Shown piece by piece: positions 11,833-40,196 of a DNA stretch of 40,196 nt. The stretch spans positions 93,053-133,248 of the forward strand of contig JAWCLR010000001.1 of assembly GCA_038850615.1 (NCBI GenBank), read 5' to 3'. The notes below the pieces were generated by a model. It had not been told where the DNA came from. It saw only the letters and a list, made by a program, of their open reading frames with translations, and searched no databases. Source of the DNA: Candidatus Woesearchaeota archaeon (GTDB lineage Archaea > Nanobdellota > Nanobdellia > Woesearchaeales > ARS49). How positions within the stretch are numbered: the first letter of the stretch is position 1; each line of letters begins with the position of its first letter. Position numbers and translations under genes: made by a program.

Positions 11833-11848
11833 TTATATAAACCTTTCG
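11833..11848 (-). promoter_or_regulatory. BRE+TATA (CGAAAGGTTTATATAA), leaderless promoter of paralogue A
   Basis: Consensus archaeal promoter ~24 nt upstream of ATG 11810. Confidence 0.7.
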
Positions 11849-11853
11849 CCGAC

Positions 11854-12783: not shown

Positions 12784-12805
12784 ATGCCTCATCCGTTTTT
12801 TTGAA

Positions 12806-12822
12806 TTATATAAATGTTTGGT
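12806..12822 (-). promoter_or_regulatory. BRE+TATA (CCAAACATTTATATAA), promoter of paralogue B
   Basis: TTTATATA ~24 nt upstream of ATG 12783. Confidence 0.65.
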
Positions 12823-12824
12823 CG

Positions 12825-13745
12825 CTATGGCTTTATTATTTTTGTTTGTGTTCCAATGCTTGAAATGTATCCATATCCGAGTGTTATGGTGAGTGGCGCT
12901 GTGTAACTGCCAAGCCTTGAATCAATGCCTTCAGGGATTGTGCAGACAACCTTTGTTTCACCCTGTTGCTTTATTTTCACTAGTGTGGGCGCGCAGGTGA
13001 GGGGTGTGTCAGAAAGCATTGCCTCGACAGTCACAACATTCCATGCTTCTGGACCCAAGGCCCTGCCTGAACACGCTTCACGATAAAGCTCTTGTGCAAC
13101 AATCTCTCCTCGTCCAAGGTTTTTGATTGTGAGCACGAATTCAGGCCTGACTCTGTTTTCCTGCTTATGCGGAAGCATTTTTGTCTCAACTGTTGCTACT
13201 GCAACAGGCGCACCCTGACCCTGCGGAAATGCCTGCGGTGTAGGAACGCACACTTTTCCTGACGCCTTGCCTGTCAGGTCTGTATCAATACATGCTGTTA
13301 TTAATGCATTTGTCTTGTAGGGATAGCACGCTGTGAATGTAATTGTTGCAGGATAGCCTTGAAGCTGGGGCCCGAGGGGCTTTGTATCAAAATTGAATTT
13401 GAGAAGCCTTTCCTCTCCTTGCGGATTGAATATTGACTTTCCGCGGACATTGAACCTTCCTTGTGCCTGTTGTCTTGGTAGGTAGAGGTATTGTGGTTCA
13501 TAGCTCAGCGCGTAAATTCCTTCCTCAACATCTGTTGTTCCGAGGTTTGCGAGGTTTACGAGGAGCGCAAACTGGTTTCCTTCATATACTTCATGGGGTG
13601 GCGTGTTTTGCGCAAAAAACAATTCAACACCTTGTGTTCCGATGTTTACTTCTGGTATTTGCATTACGTCTTTCCGCTGAAAAAGTCCGTACTGGCATCC
13701 TGAAAGCACAAGTACGAGGGCTGCAAAAACCAGGATTTTTTTCAT
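12825..13745 (-). CDS. Uncharacterised lipoprotein, paralogue C
   Basis: MKKILVFAALVLVLSGC lipobox; FTACYPY..ACID..VC, QGAPVAV, IKNLGRG, LGYGY. Confidence 0.87.
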   Translation of the reverse strand: MKKILVFAALVLVLSGCQYGLFQRKDVMQIPEVNIGTQGVELFFAQNTPPHEVYEGNQFALLVNLANLGTTDVEEGIYALSYEPQYLYLPRQQAQGRFNVRGKSIFNPQGEERLLKFNFDTKPLGPQLQGYPATITFTACYPYKTNALITACIDTDLTGKASGKVCVPTPQAFPQGQGAPVAVATVETKMLPHKQENRVRPEFVLTIKNLGRGEIVAQELYREACSGRALGPEAWNVVTVEAMLSDTPLTCAPTLVKIKQQGETKVVCTIPEGIDSRLGSYTAPLTITLGYGYISSIGTQTKIIKP

Positions 13746-15226: not shown

Positions 15227-16392
15227 TCCACCCGCACTGTCAGGCTGATGACATTAAGGTCAGTCAGTGGCATTAGCCCGATGTAATTATTGCCATCCCT
15301 GACAACTGCAGAAATGTCGCGGACATACATAGGGTCGCGCTGGGAGAGCACGTCCAGCCTTCCGTTGACGTTTGTTTCTGCCTCCTTGAGCCTTCCATCA
15401 TCAACAAATTCAATCTCAAGGATTGCGTGTGCTTTTCCCGTGGCAATTGCTGTGAAAATGTCAGGCTCTATGTAGAAAAAGTCAGAGTATCCTTTTGTAG
15501 GCTTTACGAATGTTTTTATTTTTATGTTTTCTATGCGTGCCATTCCCGAACGTAGCCTGAAGCCAATTGTGTTCTTGCCCGATACAAAGTCCTCTTTGAA
15601 CAAATCTTGTCGCGCAGGGCTTTCGCATACAGGCACTGCTGAATAAATCAGCTTGTTGTTGAGCGTTATGTCAAGCACGCCGACGTTGTACTTGTCGCAT
15701 ATTGGGTAGTACTCGAGGTATGCTGACTCAATGTTCTGGTATTCAATGTCAGGGATGCCGAATGAATTTGCAGCAATCTGCTTTTTCACATCAGTTATTT
15801 CGCCAATTATTTTTATGTCAGCGAGCTGATACTGGCGCGAGAATATTAGTCCAAAGCCCCATACTTGGAATTCAACAGCGTTGTTTGCTCGTAGCAGACT
15901 CTTTGGTATTGGCACTGGTGGCGGGTTGTTTACGATTACGTTTCCCTCAAATACTTGTTGGCCGTTGACAAGGATTTTCAGTCTTCCTCTGCGGACTGGC
16001 GCTTGGAAGCTTAGCAAAACATTGTCAACTGTTTCAAGGTCAGGTAAGTAGAAGCTGATGTTTTTGAACCGCTTCCTGAACCAGCCTTTCTTGATCACGA
16101 AAGGGCTTGCTTCCGCAAGGACTTTTGCCTGGCGTTCCTCTGTCAGGAGTAGGTTTGGTATCAGGTGCGCGTATTCTGTCTGTTCCACATAAGTAAGTCT
16201 TCCCGGAGCCGCTTTGAAAATAACTTCGCCGCCTGGCGCAATTACCCTTGGCGGTAAAACACCCTCTTCCTCCATCAAGAGCTCCCTGCGCTCCTCTGGT
16301 GGAAGGAAGATTATGTAAAATATTATCAAGAGGGTTATCAACCCTATAAGTGTCGCAGCTGCGCTGCCTGTTGCCTGACCTCGTTTCTTCAA
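15223..16392 (-). CDS. Class III signal peptide (prepilin-like) beta-rich protein
   Basis: MKKRG/QATGSAAATLIGLITLLIIFYIIFL from TTG 16392 preceded by AGGTGA SD; TATA TTTATATA at ~16431-16438. Confidence 0.8.
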   Translation of the reverse strand: MKKRGQATGSAAATLIGLITLLIIFYIIFLPPEERRELLMEEEGVLPPRVIAPGGEVIFKAAPGRLTYVEQTEYAHLIPNLLLTEERQAKVLAEASPFVIKKGWFRKRFKNISFYLPDLETVDNVLLSFQAPVRRGRLKILVNGQQVFEGNVIVNNPPPVPIPKSLLRANNAVEFQVWGFGLIFSRQYQLADIKIIGEITDVKKQIAANSFGIPDIEYQNIESAYLEYYPICDKYNVGVLDITLNNKLIYSAVPVCESPARQDLFKEDFVSGKNTIGFRLRSGMARIENIKIKTFVKPTKGYSDFFYIEPDIFTAIATGKAHAILEIEFVDDGRLKEAETNVNGRLDVLSQRDPMYVRDISAVVRDGNNYIGLMPLTDLNVISLTVRVE

Positions 16393-16509
16393 AACCGTCA
16401 CCTTCTTTTCGTCCAAAGCGAATTCGTAAATATATAAATGTATTGCCTTGTTTTATCGCAAGCTTTTTAAGCACCCTTCACTACTTATTAGTTAATATTA
16501 GGGGTTTGT

Positions 16510-26178: not shown

Positions 26179-26772
26179 ATGATTGACATTGTTTTTCCTG
26201 AAAAAAACGAGAAGGAATTCTTTGCAGTAGCCCAAAAGATTGGCTATACGGGGCTTGTGCTGGTATATCCTTCAGTTGATGCCGCAAGAAACGCGCCAAA
26301 GCCACCAACAGGATTGAAAGTAAGAACTGCCTTGCTTGCAGATCCGAAAAGGGCGCACCACCTTCGTAGCAAGGGGTTTATGGTTTTTGTCAAGTGCTCT
26401 GACCAGGACAGGGTGGTTCTTGAACGCGGCTCTGCAGATGTCATCTTCAGCGCTGAAAGCACTCAGCCCAAGGATTACACCCATCAGCGGGGCTCTGGGC
26501 TGAACCATGTGCTTTGCGACCTTGCCAAAAAAAACAAGGTCGCAATCGGATTCAGCTTTTCAGACATCCTTGCATCAAGAGACAGCCAGAGGGTCCAGCT
26601 TATTGGCAGGATGATGCAAAACATAATGCTTTGTAGGAAGTACAAGGTACGGATGGTCATTGGCTCTTTTGCAAAAGACCCGTGGAAGATGCGTTCGCCA
26701 CACGACCTTAAGTCCTTCTTTATCGTACTTGGAATGCATCCAGAAGAAGCGGCATCTGCACTTAGCCTTTGA
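26179..26772 (+). CDS. rnp3: RNase P protein component 3 (Rpp30)
   Basis: SGLNHVLCDLAKKNKVAIGFSF, NIMLCRKYKV, SFAKDPWKMRSPHDL. Start 26179 (alternative 26170). Confidence 0.9.
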   Translation: MIDIVFPEKNEKEFFAVAQKIGYTGLVLVYPSVDAARNAPKPPTGLKVRTALLADPKRAHHLRSKGFMVFVKCSDQDRVVLERGSADVIFSAESTQPKDYTHQRGSGLNHVLCDLAKKNKVAIGFSFSDILASRDSQRVQLIGRMMQNIMLCRKYKVRMVIGSFAKDPWKMRSPHDLKSFFIVLGMHPEEAASALSL

Positions 26773-27328
26773 GGATGGCTATGCATTCCTCCCTGAGAAC
26801 TTCATTGCTGATTTTCCTGCAGTTGCGCTTGTCTTCGCTTTCAAGTGCGATTGTGTAAACCGCGAGCTGTTTGCAGTCCTCTTCCATCCTTAAGCCGGCA
26901 TACCCTGTATTTCCTACCAGTGTTTCCTCGCACGCAAACCGCTTCAAGTTCATTTTCTTGCACGCCTGTAGGTCTCCAAGCACCGCCTTGCATAACAAAT
27001 CATCTGCAGGGCACTGAGTCCTGTCATCAGTAGCAAGAGCGAGGCAGGACTGCTTAATGTCCGGCTCTACGGAATCGCAGACCCTTGTATCTTTGCTGAT
27101 GTGCGCCATGCATAACTTCATCATGACCACTGTCTGCTGGCCGCAAAGTGTGGTGTCATTTGACTTTGTTGCCTCCACGAACCTTACAAAGCTGCTGCTT
27201 TCCTGTATGCACGCATTGACGAATGACTGCATTTCCACCTCAGAAATACCAGCTGGCTGGAGGTAATACCATGCAAGCCCTCCTGCCGCTGCAAGCATAA
27301 CGACAAGGATTATTGCGGTTCCTTTCAT
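26762..27328 (-). CDS. Membrane-anchored or secreted Cys-rich helical-repeat protein
   Basis: N-terminal hydrophobic segment; repeated C...A....D...C units. Confidence 0.75.
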   Translation of the reverse strand: MKGTAIILVVMLAAAGGLAWYYLQPAGISEVEMQSFVNACIQESSSFVRFVEATKSNDTTLCGQQTVVMMKLCMAHISKDTRVCDSVEPDIKQSCLALATDDRTQCPADDLLCKAVLGDLQACKKMNLKRFACEETLVGNTGYAGLRMEEDCKQLAVYTIALESEDKRNCRKISNEVLREECIAILKG

Positions 27329-27429
27329 AACAGTTGCGAAAAAGGCTTGTTATATTTATCTTTCGGTAATATTAATGAGATAAGCTTTTTAAACCAAGAG
27401 TGCCAAATCGTTTAAAAAGAGGCGGTTGT

Positions 27430-29226
27430 ATGCAACGAACAGCAATAATACTAAGCATTCTCTTAGTTATTCTTAGCTGGCCTGTTTTTGCAATGCCTTT
27501 TGAAGTGCAACTTGTTGAGATGTACAGGACGACGGGCGGTGGCTGTTGCCCTTCGGGCAATGTTTTCTTCCGGATTAACAAGACTTTTGACAAGGTTGTT
27601 TTTTCACCTGTCATTGCGCATCACCACAATTGCGGCAATGTCCTTAGATTTATGCTCTTTCAGGGCAACACGCAGATTTACAGCACTTCTTGGGAGAAAT
27701 GCTCAACTTCAGAAAGTGGTGTTGTGTATGAACGCGACCTAGGAAGCGCTGTTGCAGAAAACTTCACTTATTCAGGATACCTTGGCAGCCACAGCAGTGG
27801 TTTTACCTTTCTGGAAGCAAGGATGGCCCCTTATGAAATTTGGGGCAGTGTTGAACGAAATGCTGACCCTGTTTCCCTTGGTACAATAAGCTCCTTGATT
27901 AATGTTTCCCCCTCATCAAACCTTTTCAGGATTTATTCAGGGATGCCTGGAGTGATTGCGTGGATTGAGAACGCAGAGACTGACGATTGGGATTACAAGC
28001 GCAATGAAACCCAAAAGCCTGATGATGAGCTTTTTGTCTGTGCCGACACGAACAGCAACCAAGTCTGCGATGTCAATGAGGGCGCCTACAGAGATTGCGA
28101 TGAAAAGGATGGCGACTGGTACAACGGCTATTGCTGTGGCATTAACTTCACAAGCTGCCAGTTTGTTGGCAAGATTCCATATAACACGAGTTACGTATGC
28201 ACTAAATGGGGTGTTCGGGGCTGTTCAGGATACCAGACTGTCATCAATAACATCACAATCAATGCAATCTGCGGTAAGAACATGAATGGCAAGTGGCAGT
28301 GGGTGCCGATGGCAGAGCTTGGCGAGATTCACGAAATGAGCTGTCCTGACGGTTCTGTTGTTTCAGACGGCAGTGCGTTTTTCAGCTGTGGCGGTCAGCT
28401 TGAGGGAGTAACCCAACCCTTAGGTGATTTCAAAACAGTCAGTTTCGGCAAGGTTTCGCATGAGTATTCCTGCGTCGACAAGGTTGTTTATGAGTGCGGT
28501 GGCAGGTCAGGGCCTTTCTCCTCACGTAATGGCATTGCGATGGGAAGGATAAACCCTTCTTTGGAGGATACTTATTATTGCGCTTCTGACGGCGACTGGA
28601 CAAAAGACCTCGACTCAAAGGACGAAATGAGCTGCACTGCTGCGGGCTACAGCTGGACAGGCACTTATTGTTGCAGTGAGGACGATGACATCAATGAATA
28701 CTACAACGACCCGGCTTATCCGAATGGGCTTGGCGGGTGCTGGAACAAGATCTTCATTCCGACAGGAGACTTTGTGCCTTACCTTCCCATCGGCGCTGAC
28801 CGCGTGATAAACTATAAGGGCCGGTTTTTTGGTTGCCGTATCCCTGCCTCCAGCCCGATTCTTCAGCTCAAGGATGTTTTCAGGCAGCCGCCGCATAACT
28901 TGCTTGTGAACAACAGCGTGACTCCCTGCGGTGCAGTCCTCACTAACATCCACGAAAGCACAAAGCCGCATGCCGTGTGTCAGCCGGACGGCAAGTGGGA
29001 ATTCACGAGCGAGCTTGCAGGAATGATTAACAAGAGCATAAAATGGCCTGTGCGTGCCGGCATGAAAGGCATATCTGTTACAGGTTGCTGTGCTTATGAC
29101 CAGTGCTGGAACGGCACTGCTTGCCAGCAGCTAAATTCATACTACAGGATTGGCGAGGAGGGCTTTGTCTGCAAAATGCCGAAAGAGAACGTTATTGTGA
29201 CTGGCCCGTCGCCAAAAACAGACTAA
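27430..29226 (+). CDS. Large secreted Cys-rich protein
   Basis: Signal peptide ending VFA; repeated W.G..CC motifs (WYNGYCCG, WTGTYCCSEDD, GCCAYDQCWNG); many N-x-S/T sequons. Confidence 0.85.
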   Translation: MQRTAIILSILLVILSWPVFAMPFEVQLVEMYRTTGGGCCPSGNVFFRINKTFDKVVFSPVIAHHHNCGNVLRFMLFQGNTQIYSTSWEKCSTSESGVVYERDLGSAVAENFTYSGYLGSHSSGFTFLEARMAPYEIWGSVERNADPVSLGTISSLINVSPSSNLFRIYSGMPGVIAWIENAETDDWDYKRNETQKPDDELFVCADTNSNQVCDVNEGAYRDCDEKDGDWYNGYCCGINFTSCQFVGKIPYNTSYVCTKWGVRGCSGYQTVINNITINAICGKNMNGKWQWVPMAELGEIHEMSCPDGSVVSDGSAFFSCGGQLEGVTQPLGDFKTVSFGKVSHEYSCVDKVVYECGGRSGPFSSRNGIAMGRINPSLEDTYYCASDGDWTKDLDSKDEMSCTAAGYSWTGTYCCSEDDDINEYYNDPAYPNGLGGCWNKIFIPTGDFVPYLPIGADRVINYKGRFFGCRIPASSPILQLKDVFRQPPHNLLVNNSVTPCGAVLTNIHESTKPHAVCQPDGKWEFTSELAGMINKSIKWPVRAGMKGISVTGCCAYDQCWNGTACQQLNSYYRIGEEGFVCKMPKENVIVTGPSPKTD

Positions 29227-29238
29227 AAAGGGGGAGTA

Positions 29239-30399
29239 ATGAAAACAAAACTGGCTTTGCTGATCGTTGCAGCGGCATTTTTGCCCGCAGTCCTTGCCGA
29301 CATTGGCGCAGACTGGCAGAAGGTCTCAGTAAGCTTTTCTTGGGACTTATCAATGGGCGGGCCCTGTGCCAACGAAACACAGTGCCTCCTGCACGTTCTT
29401 GGAAATGAAAGCTATGACGGCGATATTTCGCGGTGGTTTACAATTGACAATGAAAGGCTTTGGCCAAGGTGTGTTAACAATACCCAAAGCATTCTTGACT
29501 ATGTTTGTGAGAACGGAAACTGGACAACCCGCACAAAGCGGCTTGCATTCCAGCTCGCGCAGGAAACATCTCCGGATAACTACACTTTATTCTGCGATTC
29601 GTACGCGAGCGTGCTTAACAAGTATGATTACTTGGTGAAAAATGTCCTTGTAGAGGAATATCTTGGCAACACATGCAATATGGCTGGAAAGCAAGTGCCT
29701 TGCATTAACAGCATTTGCGTCCTCAAAACGCCCGCGACAATTGCTGTTGGCACAACCCTTAACGTGCCTGTCAACCACACCACGCGCTCATTCCTACTTG
29801 CACTTAACAAGAATTCAGACCTGTGTAGAAATGTCAATCCCGCAGCAACCGGCTTCGTCTCATGCGGCTCTGATGTCTGGTACAGTCCGTCGCTTAATGC
29901 GGTCGTTTACCTTCCAAATGGTTACCTTTCATTGCCGACAGCAGGCATTTCTGAAAAAATCTCAGGTCCTATGAACAATATGAGCTATTACGTAATGCAG
30001 ATACTGCATAAGCCTGGAAATCCTGGAATGAACTTTCTTTATTTCCCAAGGACGCGCCTCTTTAATCATATTTATTTTGCGCAGAACGGCAATAGGGCCG
30101 TGTTCGGCTTCCTTGAAAAAAACCTGAAGCCGGAATACACGATTCTGCCTTACAACGAATCAAGCCCCGTGCCAATTGACTACATCGGTGTGAGGTATTC
30201 AAACATCAACCTGGGCAAAGACCCTTGCCTTAACCTTGTCAAGGTGTATGACACGCGGGCATTCTGCGAAAACCAGACGGGCAGCGGCTTCAACATCATT
30301 GCAAGGCACAGGTGCGAGCCGGGATACGAGGGCGACTGCCTGGAAGCAAGCCCTATTGTTAAAGCATGGCCTGCCCTGACAGGAAAATTGAGACCATGA
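29239..30399 (+). CDS. Secreted Cys-containing hypothetical protein
   Basis: Signal peptide ending VLA; GGGGAG SD; DYVCENGNWTTRTK. Confidence 0.85.
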   Translation: MKTKLALLIVAAAFLPAVLADIGADWQKVSVSFSWDLSMGGPCANETQCLLHVLGNESYDGDISRWFTIDNERLWPRCVNNTQSILDYVCENGNWTTRTKRLAFQLAQETSPDNYTLFCDSYASVLNKYDYLVKNVLVEEYLGNTCNMAGKQVPCINSICVLKTPATIAVGTTLNVPVNHTTRSFLLALNKNSDLCRNVNPAATGFVSCGSDVWYSPSLNAVVYLPNGYLSLPTAGISEKISGPMNNMSYYVMQILHKPGNPGMNFLYFPRTRLFNHIYFAQNGNRAVFGFLEKNLKPEYTILPYNESSPVPIDYIGVRYSNINLGKDPCLNLVKVYDTRAFCENQTGSGFNIIARHRCEPGYEGDCLEASPIVKAWPALTGKLRP

Positions 30400-31697
30400 A
30401 AAAAGCACAACTTACGCTTACGATAATAATGGGCGTCATCCTACTGTTAGCCGCAGTAACGGTGATATGGCTTGGCACCCAGACTGCAACACTGCAGACA
30501 GAACCAGAGGCAGGAGAGCAAAGGCTAAGGCAGGTTGCTGTGCAGCCAGTAAGGGAATACATCCAGTCCTGCCTTGACATAACCACAATGGCAGGTCTTG
30601 AGCTTCTTGGAAAGCAGGGAGGGGTTTTGTACAAGATGCAGGGTGGCCTTACTCCTGATGTCCAGCCCATGGAGGAAGGCTCAAGGTATGTGGAATACGA
30701 AGGAATAAACGTGAGCTACGTTATTACTAGGCCCGTCCAGGACATTGGCACGCTTTATTACGCAGAGCCTGACGAGTATCCTTTCCCCTCATTCCCTTAT
30801 GTGTTCAACCAGACAACAGGGTCTGTCATAAAGGAGTTTTACGGCGGATACTATGGCAAATCGCTTCTTCCGCCATTGTTCAAGCCGGGTAAAGACTCAA
30901 TCCAGGAACAACTCGAATCGTATATTCGCTTTAATCTGCCAAAATGCACTGACTGGAAAACTTTTGCAGCGCAGGGGCTTTCAATCACTGCAGGCAGGCC
31001 AGATGTCAGCGTAATGATTGCAGAAAACATCACACAGATTGAAGCAGAGCAGTTCCTCACCGTGCTTGTCAAATGGCAAGTGAACATCACAGACCTTACT
31101 ACAAACAGAAACACAACCCTTGACCAGTTTTCGCTTAGTTACCCTGTCCACCTCGCAAAATTTTATCTTTTCGTGCAAGGCATTGTGCTTGGCGAAATCA
31201 GTGATGCAACCTTTGACCCTCGTAATGTCAGCACAACCGCAACGCCTGTGACTATCATAAAAAATGTTTACAAAAACAGCTTTGACCAAGGCACTGATGA
31301 CATAATTCTTGTCAGAGATGAGGAGTCAAGGTTGCGAGGCAAGCCCTTGGAATTCTGGATACTTAGGGCAAACAGGTATCCTGCTCTTGTGTGGATTAAC
31401 CAGACAGAACTTGATAGGCATGAATTCTATTCGCTTGGCACTTGCAAGCAGAAGCCTTCCATATTTCTGGCAGGCGATTTGCTTGAAATAAAATTCCCTG
31501 ATATATGGACTGCAAGGCTTAGGGCTGTTGATCCGGACGAGGACATTGTCGCTTTCAGGACAGAGCCTGCCTCTCCAGGACAGATCACCATGCCGCCGCC
31601 AGGAGAACCTTTCAGGATGCGTGTTTACGCTTCAGACGGTGGCAAGACAGAGGACTATCAGGTTTTGAAGCTCCGCGTTACGGGGTGTCCAGACTGA
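30396..31697 (+). CDS. Large class III signal peptide (pilin-like) protein with C-terminal cadherin/Ig-like motif
   Basis: MKKA/QLTLTIIMGVILLLA; YIQSCL...GKQGG; NRYP..., AVDPDED, ASDG. Confidence 0.85.
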   Translation: MKKAQLTLTIIMGVILLLAAVTVIWLGTQTATLQTEPEAGEQRLRQVAVQPVREYIQSCLDITTMAGLELLGKQGGVLYKMQGGLTPDVQPMEEGSRYVEYEGINVSYVITRPVQDIGTLYYAEPDEYPFPSFPYVFNQTTGSVIKEFYGGYYGKSLLPPLFKPGKDSIQEQLESYIRFNLPKCTDWKTFAAQGLSITAGRPDVSVMIAENITQIEAEQFLTVLVKWQVNITDLTTNRNTTLDQFSLSYPVHLAKFYLFVQGIVLGEISDATFDPRNVSTTATPVTIIKNVYKNSFDQGTDDIILVRDEESRLRGKPLEFWILRANRYPALVWINQTELDRHEFYSLGTCKQKPSIFLAGDLLEIKFPDIWTARLRAVDPDEDIVAFRTEPASPGQITMPPPGEPFRMRVYASDGGKTEDYQVLKLRVTGCPD

Positions 31698-34600
31698 TGA
31701 AAAAAATTTTATTTATTGCGGCGCTGATTGCGTTGTTGTACCCAGTGGCATTCGTGGCTGCTCAGCCAGGGTGCTGTTGCGACCCGATTGTTTTCAATGG
31801 CTCGCTTGTTTTTGACCGCGCTGACTGTGACGAGACATACTGGAAATTCACTTCTGAGCTTCCTGTTCTTGGAGAAAAATGTGATGATGTATGCGAGGCG
31901 GTATTCGCCCCTCCGATTTTCATTCCACAACCTGTCAGTTGCAACTCGCCTGATTACAAGCCAGCGCCACAAAATCTTGCGGTCCTTCCCGTCAAGGGCA
32001 AAAAGCATCTTAGAATAACATACTCGCTGCCCTGCCCTGCAGAAACATATTACGTGAACATTTCGCGGTGCAAGGGCGATGATTGCGACGATTTTACCCA
32101 TATCGCGCAGGCCACGCCTTCAGGATTTTACACAGACATTTCACCCGATCTTGAATGGAATAGCGACTACACTTACAAGCTAGTCTCGGCGTCAAGGGTT
32201 TCAGGAGCTTCAGAACCCGCTATTGCATCAGGCAGGCTTAATGACATTGAATGCTGGCACAAGGGGTATGAGCAGTTCTGCATTGGCGATTACTATTATG
32301 ACCTCTTTGAGCAATACCTGAAAACATACGGCTATGCAGGCATTACTCCTGCTGCTTTTGACGCTGATTTTTCCTCAGCAGTAATTGCGGCATTCCACGA
32401 AAAGTTCAATAGGGGGTGGGCGTGCGATGAGGCAAACACGCTTTACCAGAAGGCTCCCGCTGTCAATTGCAAGGCAGGCGAGCAGTGTGTTCTTGACGAG
32501 GATGGTATAATGTGCATAAGCCAAACCGCATGTGATAGGGGTGGGATGTTCGGTATTTATTCAACGCTTGAAAGCTGTGAGGGAAACGGAGAAAAATACT
32601 GCTTTTATGACCGCTCGCACAGCTCGATTGACGAATGCTATGCGTGCAACCCGAGAATGGCGTGCGCTGATTACAGGACAAAGGGCGCTTGCGAGAGGGA
32701 CAACTGCCATGCCGGAGTTTGCGAATGGCACGATGTGATTCCAAGCATTGGAATAGGTGTGTGCGTTGACAAAAGGTTTGCAAACTGTGCATGGTGCAAG
32801 GCAAAAGGCACACCAGGGTTCGAGAACAATGACGCTTATAATGATGTGTTTGACCAGTGCACTGCTGAAAAGTCAAAAGCACTGGCTGTTCCTGAATTTT
32901 TATGCATTTATGACAAGAACGCGCAGGAAAGCAACTCGTGCGATGCCGCAGCATGTATGGATTACAATGAAACCCAATGCGGCTCTCCTGCAGGCGGAAT
33001 CAAGCTCAATCCTGACAACTCAATTGCAGTGCCAAGCACAGACCCGTGCAACATAAAGGTCTGCCAGAACATTGCCGGAGCAGGATGCGTGAAAAACCAC
33101 GACGCAAACAGCATTCCTGACTGCGCATTAAAGGTGGCTGCTCCTGAAAGAAGGCAGTGCGAGCTTGATTATTTCCCGCCAAACACAACCCTGGTGCCGA
33201 CAACATTCCGGCCTAACAGAATTGACTGGCTTGCAGTCAAGATGCTTGACAGGCTGAATGCAACCGATGATGGTACGTTTATGGAAGGCAAACCTGGCTA
33301 CCGCCTGCGCGTGTGTGTTGTCGGAAGGGAAAACCCCTGCGCAAGCCCTTCTGATTTTGCCTCAACAAATTATTCAATGCTTAACTTCAATGACGTTTAT
33401 TTGCAAGGTGGTAGAGAAGTCCTTGCAACGATGAGGGTTGGAGAGAACACTTTGCGGTATTATGGTGTTGACCGCGCAAACAACCCTGAGATTATCAAGG
33501 AGATGGCGGTAGTTGCGTGCGACAAATGTCAAGGTCCGAAAGTGCTTGAAGTGACGGTTTCGCCAGGCAAACTTGTTAATGGCAAGTATTACACAACTGC
33601 AGACACCCCAATAATCACTGTGTCGTTCAACGAGCCCGCAACCCTGACTTCTGCAGCACTCTTGCTTGGCAATAAGGTCATGCCGGTTACTGCAAGCCCG
33701 TCAAGTGGCGCTAATTATGAGTACACATTCATCCCGCTCAGGCCGTTGCTTGACGGCGAATACACATTCACCTTCAACGCCAAGGACAACAATGGCATCT
33801 TTATGGATGATACAGGCAGCGTTTCAGTAATTGTCGACACCACCCCTGGCGACATAACAATCATTCCTGAAGACGGCGCAGTCATTGGCGTTGGTTCTGT
33901 TGACATCACAATCCGGTTCAATGAGCCATTAACCCTTCTCGCGGCAACACTCGAGAACGAAGTATGGGCATCAAAATATGCGGCAAAAAAAGTCACGACG
34001 AATTTGATGCCCCTTCTTGCAGCATCCGACGACGGCATGACTTACAGTGCGACTGTTGCGGGGCTTTCAGGCGGGAAGAAGAACATCAAGGTCCGGGCAG
34101 AGGACCTTGCCGGCAATCCTGCAATTGGCAGGTCAAGCTTCTGGGTTGACCTAGGACCAATGATGATGCGGCTCAAAGAACCAAGTTGGGGGGTCAGCGC
34201 CTCGTACGTGTTTGACATCGTTGTTGAGACCTCGCGCACAGCGGTGTGCAAGTATTCCTATGACTTGCCAGCGCCTCCTTCAGAGACCGCATTTGAGGAA
34301 TTCCTGTGGTCATTCCCAGAGGAAACCGCAGTAACACACAAAATCCCTGATTTTGACAGAATTGCAATCGGCGACCTGAAGACGCACAAGCTTTACGTCT
34401 ACTGCAAAGCAGGAAGCGATATCACAATGGAATCGTTTGAGCTGCGCGTTGACCCGACTCCTCCTGTAATCAAGTCTGCATATGCCTATCCTGACGTTAT
34501 CATAGAGCGACGCTTGCCAGGACAGGATATTTTCACTACGTCACTCAAAGTGCAGACAGACGATGATGGGTTCTGTAAGTATAGCACAGAGAACGTTCCT

Positions 34601-36775
34601 TTTGTGCTAATGGATGGAGTCTTCCCTGGCTTTGATGAAATCCCAAAGAAGTCGCATAATGCTGAAATCAACGTGACACAGGACGCAACAGAATACACGT
34701 ACTATGTTGCATGCAAGAACATTGCCGAAATGCCCTCGGCAACCGTCCCTGTAAGGTTCAGCGTTGACCTCAGCGTGCCTTTTGCTGCAACAAGCAACAC
34801 TCCGCCTTACTCAAACACCACTGAATTTGTGCTGCGCGTTGAGACAAACAAGCGTTCATTCTGCTACGTGAGCGAGACGATTGATGCAGAGCCTGTCCTG
34901 ATGGGTGGGTTCGGCTATGCCCATACTGCACCTGCAAATGTAACCGGTCCTGGCAAGTACAAGTGGTTTGTGAAGTGCAGCACGGGTGCGGGCAATGAGA
35001 TTGCAACCCTTGAGATTCCTGTTGTTGTTGACACGACCCCGCCTGAAATGTTGTTTGTTGATGACAGCTCAAACCTGCCAAATGAGCCGGAGTTCTCTTA
35101 TTTCCCTGACCAGCTCCGGCTTAATTTTCTTGGCGAGGACAACGAAACAAACATAAGCGCGTACTATTACAGATTGCTTACGTACCACGCCAACACTACA
35201 GTGCTCAACTGGACATTGAGCACAAACCTCAATGCGACCCCGTTCTATGTCACAGGGCTTAGCTTGGTGGATGGCAACAAGTACCGGTTTGAGGTCTATC
35301 CTGTTAACATTGTCGGTTTGCATGGCAACGCAATGGCAAGCAATGGAGTCACAATTGACTTTGAAAAGGCGCCGGCAATTTGCGAAAACGGCGTCAAAGA
35401 CGCCAATGAGACAGACATTGACTGCGGAGGCCAGTGCCCTGGTTGTATTGACGGCGCAGCATGCAGTGCAAACACGGACTGCCAGTCTGGATACTGCAAC
35501 AATGGGATATGTGCCCTTGCTGCCTGCGATGACGGCGTCAAGAATGCAAACGAAACAGACATTGACTGCGGCGGAGGGGTTTGTTTGCCTTGCGGAATGA
35601 ACAAGACTTGCATCCAAAATTCTGATTGCGCAAGCGGCAGTTGCAATTTTGGGTTGTGCACTAATCCTGACCCATGCGCTGATGGAATCCTTTCAGGCAC
35701 AGAGAGTGATGTTGACTGCGGAGGCTCGTGTCCGACAAAGTGCGGAGATGGCAAAAACTGCCTGTCCACGCTTGACTGCTCTGTTGGCCTTATGTGCATT
35801 GAGAGCACCTGCCAGCCCGAGCGCGACTCTGACAAGGACCTCGTGCCTGATGACAGGGACAAGTGCCCGAACACCCCGCAAGATGAGGTTACTGACGAGA
35901 ACGGCTGCTCACCTTCCCAAAGGTTCAGCTGCGGCGACGAGATTTCTGACGGCTGGCGCATAAGGCACTTTGGCAGCGTGCTGTGCATAGACAACGGCGC
36001 CCCTCACGCAGATCCTGACAAGGATCTGCTTACAAACCTTGAGGAATACCGGTATGGTACAAGTCCGACAAATTCCGATACGGATTATGACACGTGGAAT
36101 GACAAAATTGAGATTGAAAAGGGCACAAACCCCCTTGACGCATCATCGCACCCGCCAAGCAAGCTTAGGATGCTGCTCTGGGTGCTCCTCGTGCTCCTTA
36201 TCATTGGTGCAATAGGAATTGGTGGCTACATCGGCTACAAGTATTATCTTGAAATACGCACACACGCAGCGCCGCCACCACTTCCCACCAAGCCTTTGCC
36301 CAAGGCGCCCGTGAAAAAAATAAAGCCAGTGCCCCCTGTGATTGACAAGTTGCGTAGGATTGCCCGCAAGGAAGAGCCTGGTGTGACAGACCGCGAATGG
36401 GTTTCAATGGCCGAGCTTGCAGAGCGGCTCAAAAAGGAAAAAGTGCCTATGCCAGAGGACGTCTTTGACAGGCTTAAGGACTTACTAAGCGGCAGGATTC
36501 CAAGGAGAGAAGCCCCCAGCGTTCTTGCTGCAATACAAAAAGAGCCAGAGGCATTCAGGCTTTTGAGGAGAATTTCGTTTGAAAGGCTTACCCCTGCAGA
36601 AAAAGCGCTTGTCAAAAAGCGTCTCGCATTCCTGAAGGCAGGCAAAATTACCCCTGCAGAACTTGAAGAAATTCTTGCAAAGCTGCGCATCACTGCAGCG
36701 TATTACAAGACACACAAAAAGGAGCTTGAACGCGAACTCGCAGAATGGCTCAATGAAAGGAGGAAGAAAAAATGA
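31697..36775 (+). CDS. Giant (1692 aa) single-pass Cys-rich surface protein / adhesin
   Basis: Signal peptide; Cys-rich head; several Ig/FN3-like modules joined by VDxTPP; three C..G.....E(T/S)D(I/V)DCGG.C repeats; TSP3-like Asp-rich repeats; TM at ~36166-36245; Pro-rich then basic helical tail. Confidence 0.9.
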   Translation: MKKILFIAALIALLYPVAFVAAQPGCCCDPIVFNGSLVFDRADCDETYWKFTSELPVLGEKCDDVCEAVFAPPIFIPQPVSCNSPDYKPAPQNLAVLPVKGKKHLRITYSLPCPAETYYVNISRCKGDDCDDFTHIAQATPSGFYTDISPDLEWNSDYTYKLVSASRVSGASEPAIASGRLNDIECWHKGYEQFCIGDYYYDLFEQYLKTYGYAGITPAAFDADFSSAVIAAFHEKFNRGWACDEANTLYQKAPAVNCKAGEQCVLDEDGIMCISQTACDRGGMFGIYSTLESCEGNGEKYCFYDRSHSSIDECYACNPRMACADYRTKGACERDNCHAGVCEWHDVIPSIGIGVCVDKRFANCAWCKAKGTPGFENNDAYNDVFDQCTAEKSKALAVPEFLCIYDKNAQESNSCDAAACMDYNETQCGSPAGGIKLNPDNSIAVPSTDPCNIKVCQNIAGAGCVKNHDANSIPDCALKVAAPERRQCELDYFPPNTTLVPTTFRPNRIDWLAVKMLDRLNATDDGTFMEGKPGYRLRVCVVGRENPCASPSDFASTNYSMLNFNDVYLQGGREVLATMRVGENTLRYYGVDRANNPEIIKEMAVVACDKCQGPKVLEVTVSPGKLVNGKYYTTADTPIITVSFNEPATLTSAALLLGNKVMPVTASPSSGANYEYTFIPLRPLLDGEYTFTFNAKDNNGIFMDDTGSVSVIVDTTPGDITIIPEDGAVIGVGSVDITIRFNEPLTLLAATLENEVWASKYAAKKVTTNLMPLLAASDDGMTYSATVAGLSGGKKNIKVRAEDLAGNPAIGRSSFWVDLGPMMMRLKEPSWGVSASYVFDIVVETSRTAVCKYSYDLPAPPSETAFEEFLWSFPEETAVTHKIPDFDRIAIGDLKTHKLYVYCKAGSDITMESFELRVDPTPPVIKSAYAYPDVIIERRLPGQDIFTTSLKVQTDDDGFCKYSTENVPFVLMDGVFPGFDEIPKKSHNAEINVTQDATEYTYYVACKNIAEMPSATVPVRFSVDLSVPFAATSNTPPYSNTTEFVLRVETNKRSFCYVSETIDAEPVLMGGFGYAHTAPANVTGPGKYKWFVKCSTGAGNEIATLEIPVVVDTTPPEMLFVDDSSNLPNEPEFSYFPDQLRLNFLGEDNETNISAYYYRLLTYHANTTVLNWTLSTNLNATPFYVTGLSLVDGNKYRFEVYPVNIVGLHGNAMASNGVTIDFEKAPAICENGVKDANETDIDCGGQCPGCIDGAACSANTDCQSGYCNNGICALAACDDGVKNANETDIDCGGGVCLPCGMNKTCIQNSDCASGSCNFGLCTNPDPCADGILSGTESDVDCGGSCPTKCGDGKNCLSTLDCSVGLMCIESTCQPERDSDKDLVPDDRDKCPNTPQDEVTDENGCSPSQRFSCGDEISDGWRIRHFGSVLCIDNGAPHADPDKDLLTNLEEYRYGTSPTNSDTDYDTWNDKIEIEKGTNPLDASSHPPSKLRMLLWVLLVLLIIGAIGIGGYIGYKYYLEIRTHAAPPPLPTKPLPKAPVKKIKPVPPVIDKLRRIARKEEPGVTDREWVSMAELAERLKKEKVPMPEDVFDRLKDLLSGRIPRREAPSVLAAIQKEPEAFRLLRRISFERLTPAEKALVKKRLAFLKAGKITPAELEEILAKLRITAAYYKTHKKELERELAEWLNERRKKK
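35381..35815 (+). repeat. Three tandem Cys-rich coding repeats (units start 35381, 35525, 35675)
   Basis: ACAGACATTGACTGCGG identical in units 1 and 2; spacing 144 and 150 nt. Confidence 0.85.
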
Positions 36776-37299
36776 ATGGACGTGCACAGGTAATCGGCCA
36801 AGTTTTCGTGTTCATAATAGCAGCTATCGTTTTTGTCCTCATTCTCGGATACGGCTACAAGGCAATAGTGAACTTTATGGAGCGCGGCGAAGAGGTCCAG
36901 ATGATTGACTTCAAGAACGAGCTCAGCTCTGCAATAACAATAATCAAGCGCGATTATGGTAGCGTCCAACGCGTTGACCTGCGAGTCCCTTCAAGAACTG
37001 AAGAGGTGTGCTTTGTCACAACAGACCCTGCAGACGTGCGCGCGCCGGGGTGGGAGGAAGAACTGAAAAAAGACAGGCCGCTTATTTATTCCGCATGGGT
37101 TACAGGAAAAGAGAACGTGTTTCTTATTCCAAAACAACCCGCGCCTCTGCGCATTGACGACCTTGTTGTTGAGCCGGAAACAACAGGATATTTATGCATG
37201 CCTGTCGTGAACAACAAAGTCAGCATTCGTGTTGAAGGCACGGGAAACAGGGCAAAAATAGGCAGGTGGCCTCAGGCAAATGAGCAAACAGGGAATTGA
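36772..37299 (+). CDS. Class III signal peptide (pilin-like) protein
   Basis: MNGRA/QVIGQVFVFIIAAIVFVLILGYGY; two Cys in the C-domain. Confidence 0.85.
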   Translation: MNGRAQVIGQVFVFIIAAIVFVLILGYGYKAIVNFMERGEEVQMIDFKNELSSAITIIKRDYGSVQRVDLRVPSRTEEVCFVTTDPADVRAPGWEEELKKDRPLIYSAWVTGKENVFLIPKQPAPLRIDDLVVEPETTGYLCMPVVNNKVSIRVEGTGNRAKIGRWPQANEQTGN

Positions 37300-38359
37300 G
37301 CTTCAGTTCAACTGGATATTTATCCTGATAGCAGGCGCCATAATCCTTGCATTCTTTTTTAGCGTGGTGCAGAAACAGCGCGCCCTGAACGAAGAGCGGC
37401 TTTCACTGACGCTTTCTGCGCAGATGGATGCTGTTTTTGCGGGCGCGATTGAAAGCAAGGGCACAACCCAGGCAAACCTCGCAGTTCCGCGCTCCGGAAT
37501 CACGTTCTCGTGCACCAGCTTCTGCACCTGCAAGTATTATATCGGCAAAGCAACGACTGATTTCGGGGACAAGCTGCTTTTTGCTCCTGCATCAATAAAG
37601 GGGCAAAACGCCATAGCAAGCGCGGTTGAGTGGAAGTTCCCTTTCAGGATTGCAAATTTTTTGGTGCTCACAAGCCCTGCAATAAAATATTTCATAATTT
37701 ACGACAGCAGCAACCAACCATCTGTCCAGCTTTTCCGCCACGTCAACAAAATACTGCCGAGGGAAATCAGCCAGCAAACATTTTCCTCAGTATCTGCTGC
37801 ATATGAGGTTGCGCCAGAGGGCTACGACCACACAAGGTTTGTCTTCCTTGGTACCACAGAACCAGACCTTGGAAGGCTTAACCCGCAGTTTATGGAAGAA
37901 GACGTTTCGGGAGTTTGGATTGACCAGGACTTTTCAAAGGTGATATTTTACGAAAAAACAAGTGAGGGCACGCTCGACTTCAGTCGCTACCCGTCCTTGC
38001 TTGCCGGCGATGCGACAGCACTGGCTGCAGTGTTTGCAGCAGACCATGACATGTATAACTGTGTCATGAGGAATGCATTTGACAAGCTCAGCATTGTTGC
38101 AGCGGTTCAGGCTGCGCGGGCAAAAGCGCTCAAGACAGCAATGGAGGTAGAGGACAGGGTTGGCTGCAGCAGCGCGTACGCTGCCATAACCAGAGAGCTT
38201 GATGATATCGCATTAAAAGCCACAATATTGAAAAAGTCCTTCCCAGAGGGAAAAACGCCTGATGAGGCAGAGGCGCTCCGCAGCCTGATTTCAGTGCAAT
38301 CAAGGTTGCAGCAGCAGAACAAGGACTTGCTGATATCGAGCTGTCCGGAGCTTTACTGA
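37280..38359 (+). CDS. Class III signal peptide (pilin-like) protein, large
   Basis: MSKQG/IELQFNWIFILIAGAIILAFF; C-terminal SSCPELY. Confidence 0.82.
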   Translation: MSKQGIELQFNWIFILIAGAIILAFFFSVVQKQRALNEERLSLTLSAQMDAVFAGAIESKGTTQANLAVPRSGITFSCTSFCTCKYYIGKATTDFGDKLLFAPASIKGQNAIASAVEWKFPFRIANFLVLTSPAIKYFIIYDSSNQPSVQLFRHVNKILPREISQQTFSSVSAAYEVAPEGYDHTRFVFLGTTEPDLGRLNPQFMEEDVSGVWIDQDFSKVIFYEKTSEGTLDFSRYPSLLAGDATALAAVFAADHDMYNCVMRNAFDKLSIVAAVQAARAKALKTAMEVEDRVGCSSAYAAITRELDDIALKATILKKSFPEGKTPDEAEALRSLISVQSRLQQQNKDLLISSCPELY

Positions 38360-38847
38360 TGAAAAAAGCGCAGATAAAGATGTTTGAGACCATTGGCGTG
38401 CTTGTGATATTTTTCTTCCTGCTCGTTTCTGGCGCAGTGTTTTATTTCAAGATGCAGGAGTCTGCATTTCAGAAGGAGCTTGCAAAGCAGGCGCAGCTCA
38501 GAAGCCTTAAGGCGGCACAGCGCGCTGTCTTCTTGCCCGAGCTTGATTGTAGCCTTGTAAGTGTTCAGCGCGAAAACTGCTTTGACAGCATCAAGCTCTC
38601 GGCGCTCAGGGCATTGATTGAAGGCGACCAGCACGTTTATGATGAGTACTTCAGCACCTTCGGCTACTCCAATATCTCTGTGCGCCAAGTTTATCCACCA
38701 AATGATTTTGCAATGACGCTTTATCATCACCCGCCTGATGAGTACAGGCGTGCGCTGCAGTCAAAGCTGCCTGTGCTATTATACGACCCGGTATCAAGGG
38801 ATTACGCCTTTGGGCTGATGGAGGTCACCACGTATGCGCAGGCATAA
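38359..38847 (+). CDS. Class III signal peptide (pilin-like) protein
   Basis: MKKA/QIKMFETIGVLVIFFFLL; LPELDCS...NCFD; PVLLYDP...FG. Confidence 0.87.
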   Translation: MKKAQIKMFETIGVLVIFFFLLVSGAVFYFKMQESAFQKELAKQAQLRSLKAAQRAVFLPELDCSLVSVQRENCFDSIKLSALRALIEGDQHVYDEYFSTFGYSNISVRQVYPPNDFAMTLYHHPPDEYRRALQSKLPVLLYDPVSRDYAFGLMEVTTYAQA

Positions 38848-39310
38848 AGGGCAGATGGAAATAATGGGGCTTGCCATAATCATCATACTTGTCTCCCTTG
38901 GCCTGTTGTTCGCAGTCAGGTGGATGCTTAAGCCGCCTGTTGTTGAGCCACAGCGTGTGGAGGAATCTGTGCTTGCGGCAAACTTCCTAAGCACAATGCT
39001 TGGCACAACCACCGAATGCAACAAGCGGACTGTGCGCGACCTTTTGCAGGACTGCGCACTGACTCAAGGCGTGACAAAATGTGGAGGGCTATCATCATGC
39101 GATTATGCAAAGAAGATAATAGAAATTATGTTGGCAGAGACATTTGGCAAGTGGAAGCTTAATTATTATTTCTCAATAAGGGGCAATGCGCCGGTGATCG
39201 AGGGCATCAAGTTCGGCTCGCCCTGCCCTGGCGCTCGCGAAAAAAAAGAGCATCCTCTTCCAGTAACCCCTACTTTCGAGATCGTTATCTCCCTTGAAAT
39301 CTGCAGGTGA
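38834..39310 (+). CDS. Class III signal peptide (pilin-like) protein
   Basis: MRRHKG/QMEIMGLAIIIILVSLGLLFAV; six Cys. Confidence 0.87.
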   Translation: MRRHKGQMEIMGLAIIIILVSLGLLFAVRWMLKPPVVEPQRVEESVLAANFLSTMLGTTTECNKRTVRDLLQDCALTQGVTKCGGLSSCDYAKKIIEIMLAETFGKWKLNYYFSIRGNAPVIEGIKFGSPCPGAREKKEHPLPVTPTFEIVISLEICR

Positions 39311-39345: not shown

Positions 39346-40196
39346 ATGAAGTTAGGGGAGAAGGTCAAGAGGTTCTTTCTTAAGCTTGGATTTCGGTACT
39401 TGCCATGGATTGTGTTTGGTACTCTGACGGCACTCATTTTTATTGACATCAAAAAGGAGAGCAATCTTGAAAGGGTTGTTGGAAGTTCGAATACCGATTC
39501 TTGGAACATTTCGCCTGATGCTAAGCGCATAGCGTTCAGCTCAAATAAGCTTAACGTGAAAAGAGATGCTGACGTGTATGTTTCAGGAATGAATGGCGAA
39601 AACATCGAATGCGTAATCGACAGTCCTGATGATGACCGCTTCCAAAGATGGTCTCCTGATAACAGTTCTTTTCTTTTTGGGCGCAAAAACGAACTTTATC
39701 TTTTTGACCTTAGATCACGCCAGGAACAGAAGGTTTCTGAAGGCCCTGTCTATTATGCAAATTTCTCGCCAGATGGTCGCATAATAACATTTTACCAGGA
39801 AGGAACACTGCATTTTTTTGACAGGGAAACACTGCAAACGCACAAATTTCCAAACGCAAAAACAGACTCTTTCATTCCGCAAATCAGATGGAACAACAGA
39901 ACTGCGCTTTTCAAGCATGGCGAAAGGCTTGCGTTGTTCTCGCTTGACAATCCAAAGCTGGAGAGGATTGTGTCAGAGCAGGTTTTGTCATTTGACTGGG
40001 CAGGAAATAATATTGCGTACTTAGCTAAAAGCAACACTTCTGTGCTTCAAATTTTGGATTGCGAATCAAGAAAAACAAGCCAGGTAAGACTCAATTTTCC
40101 TGGTTATGGACTGCTGGGCACTGACGGATTTGTTGCTGTCTTCTCCGAGGACAATCAAGTTTGTGTTGCTGATTGCGCCTCAGGTAGCGTGTCAGA
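39346..40196 (+). CDS. TolB-like (PD40/WD40-like) beta-propeller protein with N-terminal TM anchor; runs off the right edge
   Basis: Absent from the ORF track because it has no stop. Hand translation is open to the end with ISPDAKRIAFSS, RWSPDNS, NFSPDGR repeats. Confidence 0.85.
   Translation, partial: MKLGEKVKRFFLKLGFRYLPWIVFGTLTALIFIDIKKESNLERVVGSSNTDSWNISPDAKRIAFSSNKLNVKRDADVYVSGMNGENIECVIDSPDDDRFQRWSPDNSSFLFGRKNELYLFDLRSRQEQKVSEGPVYYANFSPDGRIITFYQEGTLHFFDRETLQTHKFPNAKTDSFIPQIRWNNRTALFKHGERLALFSLDNPKLERIVSEQVLSFDWAGNNIAYLAKSNTSVLQILDCESRKTSQVRLNFPGYGLLGTDGFVAVFSEDNQVCVADCASGSVS

Follow-up and report, generated by a model that had tools for sequence, protein, structure and literature searches.

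What does a 12-kb run of eight genes, five of them encoding proteins with prepilin-type N-termini, contribute to an archaeal cell when no assembly motor is encoded beside it? The genes in question (g1 to g8) lie in a window of 40,196 nt, by which we mean the whole stretch of DNA analysed, taken from contig JAWCLR010000001.1 (positions 93,053 to 133,248) of the Candidatus Woesearchaeota archaeon assembly GCA_038850615.1. DPANN archaea such as the Woesearchaeales have not been cultured; their genomes are tiny, and a dependence on other cells is assumed for them. We consider it likely, with a probability of roughly 0.6, that g1-g8 provide those parts of the organism's only type IV filament (T4F) system that are exposed at the surface and do not belong to its motor, i.e. 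minor-pilin-like subunits and associated surface proteins.

The eight open reading frames (ORFs) occupy positions 27430-39310 of the window, all on the + strand. The junctions from g1 to g8 measure, in order, +12, -4, -1, -4, -20, -1 and -14 nt; the value of -1 for g3/g4 applies to the ATG start of g4 at 31697 and changes to -13 with the GTG at 31685. As these junctions overlap or nearly abut, g1-g8 are translationally coupled. ORF calling and the choice of starts were our own and crude; the layout is that of eight co-oriented genes with overlapping or near-abutting junctions given in a preliminary description of this DNA made from its letters. The intergenic region upstream of g1 (27329..27429, +) is AT-rich, with TTATATTTATC and TTTTTAAA stretches that would make it a candidate archaeal promoter.

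Five of the proteins begin with a short leader followed by about 25-30 hydrophobic residues (a slash marks the putative cleavage site): the modular pilin-like g3 (30396..31697, +; 433 aa; MKKA/QLT) and the pilin-like g5 (36772..37299, +; 175 aa; MNGRA/QVIGQVF), g6 (37280..38359, +; 359 aa; MSKQG/IELQFNW), g7 (38359..38847, +; 162 aa; MKKA/QIKMFET) and g8 (38834..39310, +; 158 aa; MRRHKG/QMEIMGL). All five are marked as class III signal proteins by our own rule, which is not that of FlaFind (short basic leader, K/R at -2, G/A/S at -1 and at least about 20 hydrophobic residues). The preliminary description had read the same five leaders in proteins of 158 to 433 aa and had pointed out the lack of the canonical Glu at +5; both statements hold. 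Glu is absent from +5 in all five proteins, and a conserved Glu is found at other positions, namely +2 in g6 (18/33), +3 in g8 (E/D in 32/32) and +6 in g7 (27/32).

These position counts come from 23-33 orthologs per family, collected from 36 loci. In g3 orthologs we observed G/A/S at -1 in 22/23, Q at +1 in 23/23 and T/S at +3 in 23/23. For g7 the values were 30/32 (G/A/S at -1) and 29/32 (Q at +1), and for g8 31/32 (K/R at -2), 32/32 (G/A/S at -1), 32/32 (Q at +1) and 30/32 (G at +6), so that g3, g7 and g8 hardly ever depart from the pattern [KR]-[GAS]/Q. The g5 family has G/A at -1 in 23/29, Q at +1 in 19/29 and Q at +5 in 22/29 orthologs; the g6 family keeps K/R at -3 (32/33), G/A at -1 (25/33), F at +5 (30/33) and W at +7 (27/33). 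Gln at +1 is typical of the Methanococcus EppA substrates. Since a plain membrane anchor would not be expected to keep such a pattern while the rest of the protein diverges to 25-45% identity, the N-termini of the five families are supported as conserved class III-type signals.

The five proteins had been described as unrelated beyond the N-terminus, and hhalign comparisons bear this out: the alignment of g7 with g8 is confined to the first 56 columns (91% probability), while alignments of g7 with g5, g8 with g5 and g6 with g5 were not significant. The small proteins have conserved cysteines of their own, a pair in g5 (C80, C142), a pair in g7 (C64, C74) and five invariant Cys in g8 that include the third-last residue; the conserved pairs would fit extracellular disulfides.

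How unusual is it to find five such proteins side by side? The crude class III rule marks 29 of the 946 non-overlapping ORFs of at least 90 aa in the genome (3.1%), with all five operon proteins among them and about 20 further class III-like ORFs scattered over the genome. With five of eight neighbours marked at a genome-wide rate of 3.1% (p ∼1e-6 per position by our arithmetic), the clustering of class III-like ORFs in the operon is far beyond chance.

A synteny check in Woesearchaeales had been suggested for this locus, and gene order proved to be conserved. Homologs were found for g3 (35, at 52-88% identity) and for g6 (87), any named ones being hypothetical proteins; the close relatives carry the labels Candidatus Woesearchaeota or Nanoarchaeia. 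We collected g3 neighbourhoods at 18 loci from other genomes of the order. In 11 of the 18 the full set of eight is there with its arrangement and orientation kept, at 25-47% identity in the distant ones. Of the remaining seven, four are cut by the end of the contig or region and three have no detectable g1/g2, two of those also being without g5.

Outside the order the picture is set by g5-g8. Run against 1.84 billion representative proteins, the g7 profile matched 1262 clusters (at E≤1e-3), almost all of them 150-170 aa in length. In a sample of the phylum it matched 135 of 151 genomes, all within one class, with a single match in 129 of the 135; by group, matches were seen in 111/117 genomes from the own order or closer and in 24/34 from other orders of the class. 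These genome samples are draws of related genomes and the counts are not independent observations. A further 18 g7 neighbourhoods, 14 of them from other orders, were searched with hidden Markov models (HMMs) of g5, g6, g7 and g8. In 16 of the 18 the complete set of four was found with order and strand unchanged, with gaps of <1 kb in 14 and insertions of 2-4 kb in two; the other two loci are without g5 only, and one of them is at a contig end. A g3-like N-terminal module is present a few kb upstream in 9 of these 18 loci. The g5-g8 genes are thus a near-universal, mostly single-copy block across the class, not an accessory island. Given how the g3 module, the large protein upstream of g5 (see below) and g5-g8 are spread across orders, the ancient unit appears to consist of a modular class III protein, a giant Cys-rich protein and then g5-g6-g7-g8, with g1/g2 and the membrane anchor of g4 appearing as features of the order. 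No Pfam or NCBIfam family covers the block's pilin-like proteins. In the literature on Woesearchaeota and DPANN pili and pilins we found no description of the block, although Tables S4 and S5 and Figure S10 of a 2026 survey of archaeal T4F systems (PMC13705601) may list some of its genes.

Where, then, is the machinery that would use these proteins? Scans for T2SSE, T2SSF and Peptidase_A24 gave no match among the eight operon proteins and 28 other ORFs of the window, in agreement with the statement of the preliminary description that neither motor nor prepilin peptidase is in the window; the AAA ATPase at 6856-7998 is proteasome-type. The genome (914 kb in 29 contigs, 99.4% complete, with the window on the largest contig, C1) has a single Peptidase_A24 gene (PF01478, E 2e-17), located on contig C25. 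Its product has both catalytic-type Asp motifs (YSD25IRTREVPD and GGGD87) and scores better with the model of FlaK (1.2e-7) than with that of EppA (0.12). A 175-aa pilin candidate matching TIGR02537 (E 1.7e-4) is encoded 1.5 kb from this peptidase. On contig C5 there is one T2SSE ATPase (757 aa; best models TadA and FlaI), and its gene overlaps a gene for a 737-aa multi-pass protein. The latter matches PF00482 weakly (E 0.23, profile positions 13-125 of 125), a direct PF00482 search of the genome giving no match at threshold; its nearest ESM-Atlas clusters are named GspF-domain (0.98, 0.96, 0.95), and two of these have PF00482 in 21% and 16% of their members. We take the 737-aa protein to be a putative GspF/TadC-like platform, the least secure of the three components.

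The ATPase, platform and prepilin peptidase by which a T4F system is recognized at the genome level are thus present, all on contigs other than the operon's. The preliminary description had predicted machinery encoded elsewhere and had named a genome lacking the peptidase or the ATPase as the result that would speak against it; this result was not obtained. All five operon-bearing genomes tested have an A24 peptidase and an ATPase frame of 754-770 aa; a test of 24 g7-positive genomes from other orders found the peptidase in every one. As far as the accessible part of the survey goes (PMC13705601), an adjacent ATPase and platform with scattered pilin and accessory genes is the norm in DPANN archaea, and the separation of machinery and pilin genes seen here agrees with that layout. 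The same part of the survey states that DPANN genomes rarely show an ordered T4F locus, that most of the scattered systems detected were left unassigned and that system-1-type pilins occur in 1990 DPANN genomes (PMC13705601).

In two operon-bearing genomes a second, weak Peptidase_A24-like stretch was seen near the operon: G075:C9:95480-95833 (-; 26.2 bits), in an 890-aa frame just upstream of g1, and G123:C1:224905-225258 (+; 23.9 bits), about 5 kb upstream. These stretches may represent a dedicated peptidase-like protein; no counterpart was found in the genome studied here.

The preliminary description had named predicted folds without a pilin-like arrangement of helix plus head as a result that would speak against it. 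In g6 a long, pilin-like helix is predicted at the N-terminus, with strands and further domains after it. The AlphaFold2 model of g6, made with a 52-sequence alignment, has a predicted local distance difference test score (pLDDT) of 89.5 and a predicted template modelling score (pTM) of 0.85. It shows a continuous helix at 6-58 (53 residues), strands at 63-141, an alpha/beta region and a three-helix C-terminus at 256-352; the modelled helix has the length of a pilin alpha-1. A Foldseek search of the PDB with g6 gave no match at E≤0.001, and the fold searches with g6 returned no pilins, because the helical C-terminus filled the result lists. The AlphaFold2 model of g3 (pLDDT 80.7) has a hydrophobic helix at 3-31 and a low-confidence linker at 27-40, after which come an alpha/beta domain opening with a long helix, beta domains and, at the C-terminus (326-432), a cadherin/immunoglobulin (Ig)-like domain with a conserved DPDED motif. 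The resemblance of g3 to pilins is only weak. Its N-terminal ∼100-200 aa form a separate module; the profile matches 363 of 401 genomes of the order, mostly with several matches in one genome and in frames of 400-1900 aa, and 12 unpublished genomes are counted in this tally. In a complex prediction made with the globular parts of g5-g8, with g8 as the partner, the score was 0.81; the controls with a replaced partner scored 0.00 and 0.00 and the control with a replaced g6 scored 0.78, an outcome that speaks neither in favour of binding nor against it.

The genome studied here has two paralogs of the g3 module on contig C2, beside other giant Ig-like proteins. This paralogous surface locus (C2:8000-27999) encodes two proteins, of 724 and 658 aa, that share the N-terminal module of g3 (about 80 aa at 42% identity); signal-peptide proteins of 1061 and 680 aa and a further Ig-like giant flank them. 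Small pilin-like genes are found in the vicinity, one for a protein of 199 aa (MNKKG/LELS) and one for a protein of 210 aa (KKG/ALELS).

The largest gene of the operon, g4 (31685/31697..36775, +; 1696/1692 aa; likely start ATG 31697), had been described as a giant adhesin, which calls for one correction. The protein has 76 Cys (4.5%). A signal peptide or hydrophobic N-terminal segment at 3-32 precedes a GCCCDP motif, Ig-like domains, three Cys-rich repeats and TSP3-like Asp-rich repeats, and after a transmembrane segment at 1490-1519 there is a K/E-rich C-terminal tail of ∼177 aa. Big_13 was the one significant Ig-like match in Pfam (E 1.4e-8), and the PDB sequence search gave only a weak match to an Ig-like stretch of the Lap adhesin (E 1.8e-4). 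Because of the signal peptide, the transmembrane segment and the C-terminal tail, g4 is predicted to be a membrane protein of type I, whose conserved tail is in the cytoplasm, and not a freely secreted adhesin. It fits better as a membrane- or envelope-anchored partner than as a pilus-borne tip adhesin, and it may act as an adhesin, as a surface-layer (S-layer)-like envelope protein or as a transmembrane coupler.

The first two genes encode proteins with Sec-type signal peptides, g1 (27430..29226, +; 598 aa; 30 Cys and 10 N-x-S/T sequons) and g2 (29239..30399, +; 386 aa; 14 Cys). They had been listed as two Cys-rich secreted proteins, and their Cys shares of 5.0% and 3.6%, as compared with 1.4% in the genome's long ORFs, are in line with this. 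For g1 there was no Pfam, NCBIfam or PDB sequence match of note, and for g2 no family or PDB sequence match. In 8 of the 14 related loci containing both, g1 and g2 are a single ORF, which argues that they work together.

One could then think of the operon as an envelope module, in which g4 is an S-layer-like or other envelope protein with g1/g2 as partners, and the pilin-like proteins pass or anchor a T4F system through the envelope with no role in adhesion or host contact. A near-universal presence suits a housekeeping part of the envelope, and the position upstream of g5 is of interest here. In the 18 same-order loci the gene immediately upstream of g5 (upstream of g6 if no g5 was detected) encodes a large Cys-rich signal-peptide protein, with an N-terminal hydrophobic segment in 17/18, 3.4-10.8% Cys, a C-terminal transmembrane segment and a tail of 111-254 aa; the properties of the Cys-rich, S-layer-like proteins with a C-terminal transmembrane segment known from subsystems 4B and 4G are seen in g4 and conserved in these loci. 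In other orders, 8 of 14 loci have at this position a protein of 1149-1809 aa with an N-terminal hydrophobic segment, and seven of these eight have 4.2-5.3% Cys. Still, most of the other-order proteins are without the C-terminal transmembrane segment, and g4 is poorly conserved outside the order: its HMM, built like those of g1 and g2 from a handful of orthologs, matches none of the large upstream proteins there. The genome has other giant surface proteins as well, and no S-layer family match was obtained for g4 in Pfam or NCBIfam. We regard a purely envelope function as improbable.

Several observations weigh against assigning the operon to a T4F system. Neither g3 nor any of g5-g8 has a match in Pfam (E≤10) or NCBIfam (E≤1), though both libraries contain models of pilins and class III signals, and though TIGR02537 does match the 175-aa protein on C25; none of 58 relatives of g7 matches a pilin family above chance. 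Of 16 genomes in which g7 was not matched, 14 have the A24 peptidase as well, and its co-occurrence with the operon is therefore necessary but not discriminating. A phmmer search with the organism's own ATPase, platform and peptidase against the ORFs of the 36 neighbourhoods gave 0 matches and hence no support from linkage. The linker of g3 splits the hydrophobic helix from the globular part, unlike the continuous helix of classical pilins, and the membrane anchor and cytoplasmic tail of g4 are unfit for an adhesin borne on a filament.

Could the N-termini be nothing but uncleaved signal anchors, and the eight proteins a complex at the membrane or surface that depends on Sec and has nothing to do with T4F machinery? 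The missing pilin family matches, the missing linkage of ATPase, platform or peptidase in the 36 neighbourhoods and the presence of the peptidase with or without a detected g7 would be natural under this explanation. Plain anchors, on the other hand, have no need of a Q at +1, a G/A/S at -1 and a K/R at -2 kept invariant across families of only 25-45% identity, of a conserved Glu or Gln within the first six mature residues or of a helix of pilin alpha-1 length as modelled for g6. For these reasons we find uncleaved anchors hard to believe in.

A non-filament complex similar to a bindosome deserves more attention. Here the class III proteins would be processed and would stay as a membrane scaffold holding g4 and g1/g2, and no extended pilus would be formed. 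In the accessible part of the survey the Sulfolobus bindosome (BasABC) is a documented T4F-dependent non-pilus structure made with small class III proteins (PMC13705601). With a scaffold of this kind one can reconcile the separate membrane anchor and conserved tail of g4, the flexible linker after the hydrophobic helix of g3, an operon without a major-pilin-like small gene and a weak match of the g7 N-terminus to BasB, itself at chance level (E 0.03). The continuous 53-residue helix in the g6 model and the four distinct conserved small subunits look more like subunits of a filament or stem, many other candidate pilins in the genome could extend such a stem, and in the Pfam scan we saw no link of the operon to substrate-binding or sugar-binding proteins or to an ATP-binding cassette (ABC) transporter. 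A scaffold without a pilus is therefore unlikely in our estimation, though less so than the envelope module or the uncleaved anchors.

Two leads on the family of g7 were followed and dropped. TadE and Flp1_like each matched 2/58 of the g7 relatives at E about 0.04, which is chance level. The nearest named Atlas cluster was DUF7287 (PF23958; score 0.92, TM-score 0.67); PF23958 is absent from the organism's genome at E≤1 and matches 0/58 g7 relatives, and the lead was given up as unproven. No mention of DUF7287, DUF7288 or DUF7289 was found in the literature searched.

We return to the operon as the non-motor, surface-exposed part of a T4F system. In the mechanism that we propose, g3, g5, g6, g7 and g8 would be made as preproteins with class III signal peptides, and the sole A24 peptidase would cleave after [G/A/S], leaving Gln at +1 (Ile or Val in g6). 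The single ATPase/platform pair, encoded on another contig, would next make use of the hydrophobic N-terminal helices of the five. The mutually unrelated g5-g8 may assemble into a short multi-subunit stem, either a complex of the minor-pilin, priming or tip kind or a pseudopilus standing by itself, and g3 would contribute a cadherin-like module carried on a pilin-type anchor. The g4 protein would stay anchored in the membrane by its C-terminal helix, with the tail in the cytoplasm, and could form, with the disulfide-rich secreted g1 and g2, an associated envelope or adhesion partner. Cleavage, assembly of a filament or stem, the major pilin (if there is one) that follows, contacts between the parts and a use in attaching to surfaces or to host cells are all inferred from the genes. 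The operon probably builds a device for attachment at the cell surface, and host recognition is a plausible use of it in a DPANN archaeon.

The arrangement has known parallels. Bacterial core minor pilins are encoded together with PilY1, as in fimU-pilVWXY1E of Pseudomonas, and Myxococcus has a priming complex of PilY1 and minor pilins. As in those operons, four to five dissimilar pilin-like proteins with conserved N-termini and a large non-pilin surface protein are encoded in a fixed order, apart from the ATPase and platform genes, and the operon is conserved across a lineage; by analogy, the arrangement seen here may work in the same way. There are differences. We detected no sequence similarity to the bacterial proteins, the signals are of archaeal type (Q at +1, no Glu at +5), g4 is a Cys-rich Ig-domain protein with a predicted type I membrane topology and a cytoplasmic tail and not a beta-propeller like PilY1, there is no outer membrane or secretin, and the complex is a putative one. 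The pseudopilus tip of type II secretion, GspH-I-J-K, is likewise encoded by four consecutive pilin-like genes, one product being much larger (here g6, 359 aa). In this case no homology was detected either, the archaeon has a single membrane, and to see g1/g2 as secreted substrates would be a guess.

Among archaeal systems, the Epd pilus locus of Methanococcus maripaludis (system 1), as presented in the accessible part of the survey, resembles our operon in having several minor pilins, an adhesin-like large protein in the same operon, a major pilin encoded elsewhere and processing by an A24 peptidase, which for our operon is a prediction (PMC13705601). Unlike our operon, that of Epd carries the EppA peptidase, an ATPase and two platform genes (PMC13705601); the present genome has a single platform candidate and a peptidase nearer to FlaK than to EppA. 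The operon falls outside the definition of an Epd or system 1 locus. An Epd locus is further characterised by minor pilins of arCOG05055, arCOG05053 and arCOG06584 and by an adhesin with DUF2341, a domain that had no match in the Pfam scan of the operon proteins. Subsystems 4B and 4G, compared here by their description in that part of the survey, combine several pilins, a large Cys-rich S-layer-like protein with a C-terminal transmembrane segment plus a distinct signal-peptide adhesin or minor-pilin candidate, as does our operon; they adjoin the ATPase and platform genes in Thermoproteota (PMC13705601), whereas the block found here is detached from them and occurs in Nanoarchaeia. A functional analogy is offered by the episymbiotic Saccharibacteria, also ultrasmall and with reduced genomes, in which, according to the accessible part of one study, type IV pili are predicted to facilitate symbiotic interactions (PMC11623550). 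Those pili are a bacterial system made of unrelated proteins, and these data reveal no host or symbiosis of the archaeon.

One could speculate further that the bacterial core minor pilins have their archaeal counterpart in g5-g8, as a priming or tip complex of four subunits that is ancient, mostly single-copy and near-universal in Nanoarchaeia. Together with the lineage-variable giant Cys-rich protein and g3 it would make up an organelle of cell-cell contact, used by these ultrasmall archaea for attaching to their hosts and perhaps for signalling across them, the tail of g4 coupling contact on the outside to the inside of the cell. We put this forward as a tentative idea that may well prove wrong; tip, priming and host-recognition roles would go with it. 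Should g5-g8 form a complex for priming or for the tip, the bacterial principle of core minor pilins would hold for archaea too, with an unrelated set of proteins, and the block would give a marker and a set of targets for studying the nanoarchaeal surface and host contact. If it is only an envelope scaffold, the block would still be among the few conserved surface modules of the group. Either way, the analysis defines a concrete gene block, of fixed order and near-universal in the sampled class, that lies outside the coverage of Pfam and NCBIfam.

Just upstream of g1 there is a divergent gene (26762-27328, -) for a secreted protein of 188 aa with 6.4% Cys; it is conserved at 72% identity in the closest relative, and two others keep it weakly. 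After g8 a gene at 39346-40194 (+), running past the end of the window, encodes a membrane-anchored beta-propeller protein (PD40/DPP IV N-terminal-like); it follows the operon only in the closest relative and is thus outside the conserved block.

Base composition is even across the window (GC 0.43-0.52); an origin from a mobile element or virus was weighed only by base composition and by conservation across the class, no search being aimed at phages or plasmids. The genome has archaeal housekeeping genes, including those for eRF1, RFC, FEN1, a proteasome-type AAA ATPase and RNase P p30. Four DNA sequencing runs, from one hot-spring metagenome study, contain the stretch or a part of it (three of them with at least half of its words); among the runs listed as containing it there was no RNA run. 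The RFC small-subunit gene of the window (9543-10523, +) has an in-frame TAA at 9897-9899, inside the Walker B motif (IIFLDE, stop, DALT), where 4/4 congeneric genomes have a Cys codon (TGT or TGC). An error of the assembly, a variant within the population or a genuine nonsense codon in an essential gene could each account for the stop.

A second surface locus is located at 10866-16416 (-) of the window. It encodes a 397-aa protein with a class III-like N-terminus (KKRG/QATG), a 494-aa multi-pass membrane protein without a family match and three paralogous lipoprotein-like proteins (26-29% identity), one of them with a match to the LPAM_1 lipobox.

Further pilin-like ORFs were seen elsewhere in the genome. 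On contig C1, ∼3.5 kb past the end of the window (L005:3514-4011, +), a 165-aa ORF has the bacterial-type N-terminal methylation motif GFTLIELG (PF07963, E 7.6e-5), located ∼68 residues into the ORF and not at its N-terminus. Close by, a pilin-like ORF (MDKKA/QGLPITT) runs off the contig end at L005:4088. Contigs C3, C5, C10 and C13 encode at least six small proteins (105-207 aa) with the near-identical N-terminus E-E-G-[RK]-G/VALAILGIVAVIAVVGLVLLF, a family that could represent candidate major pilins or another class III family.

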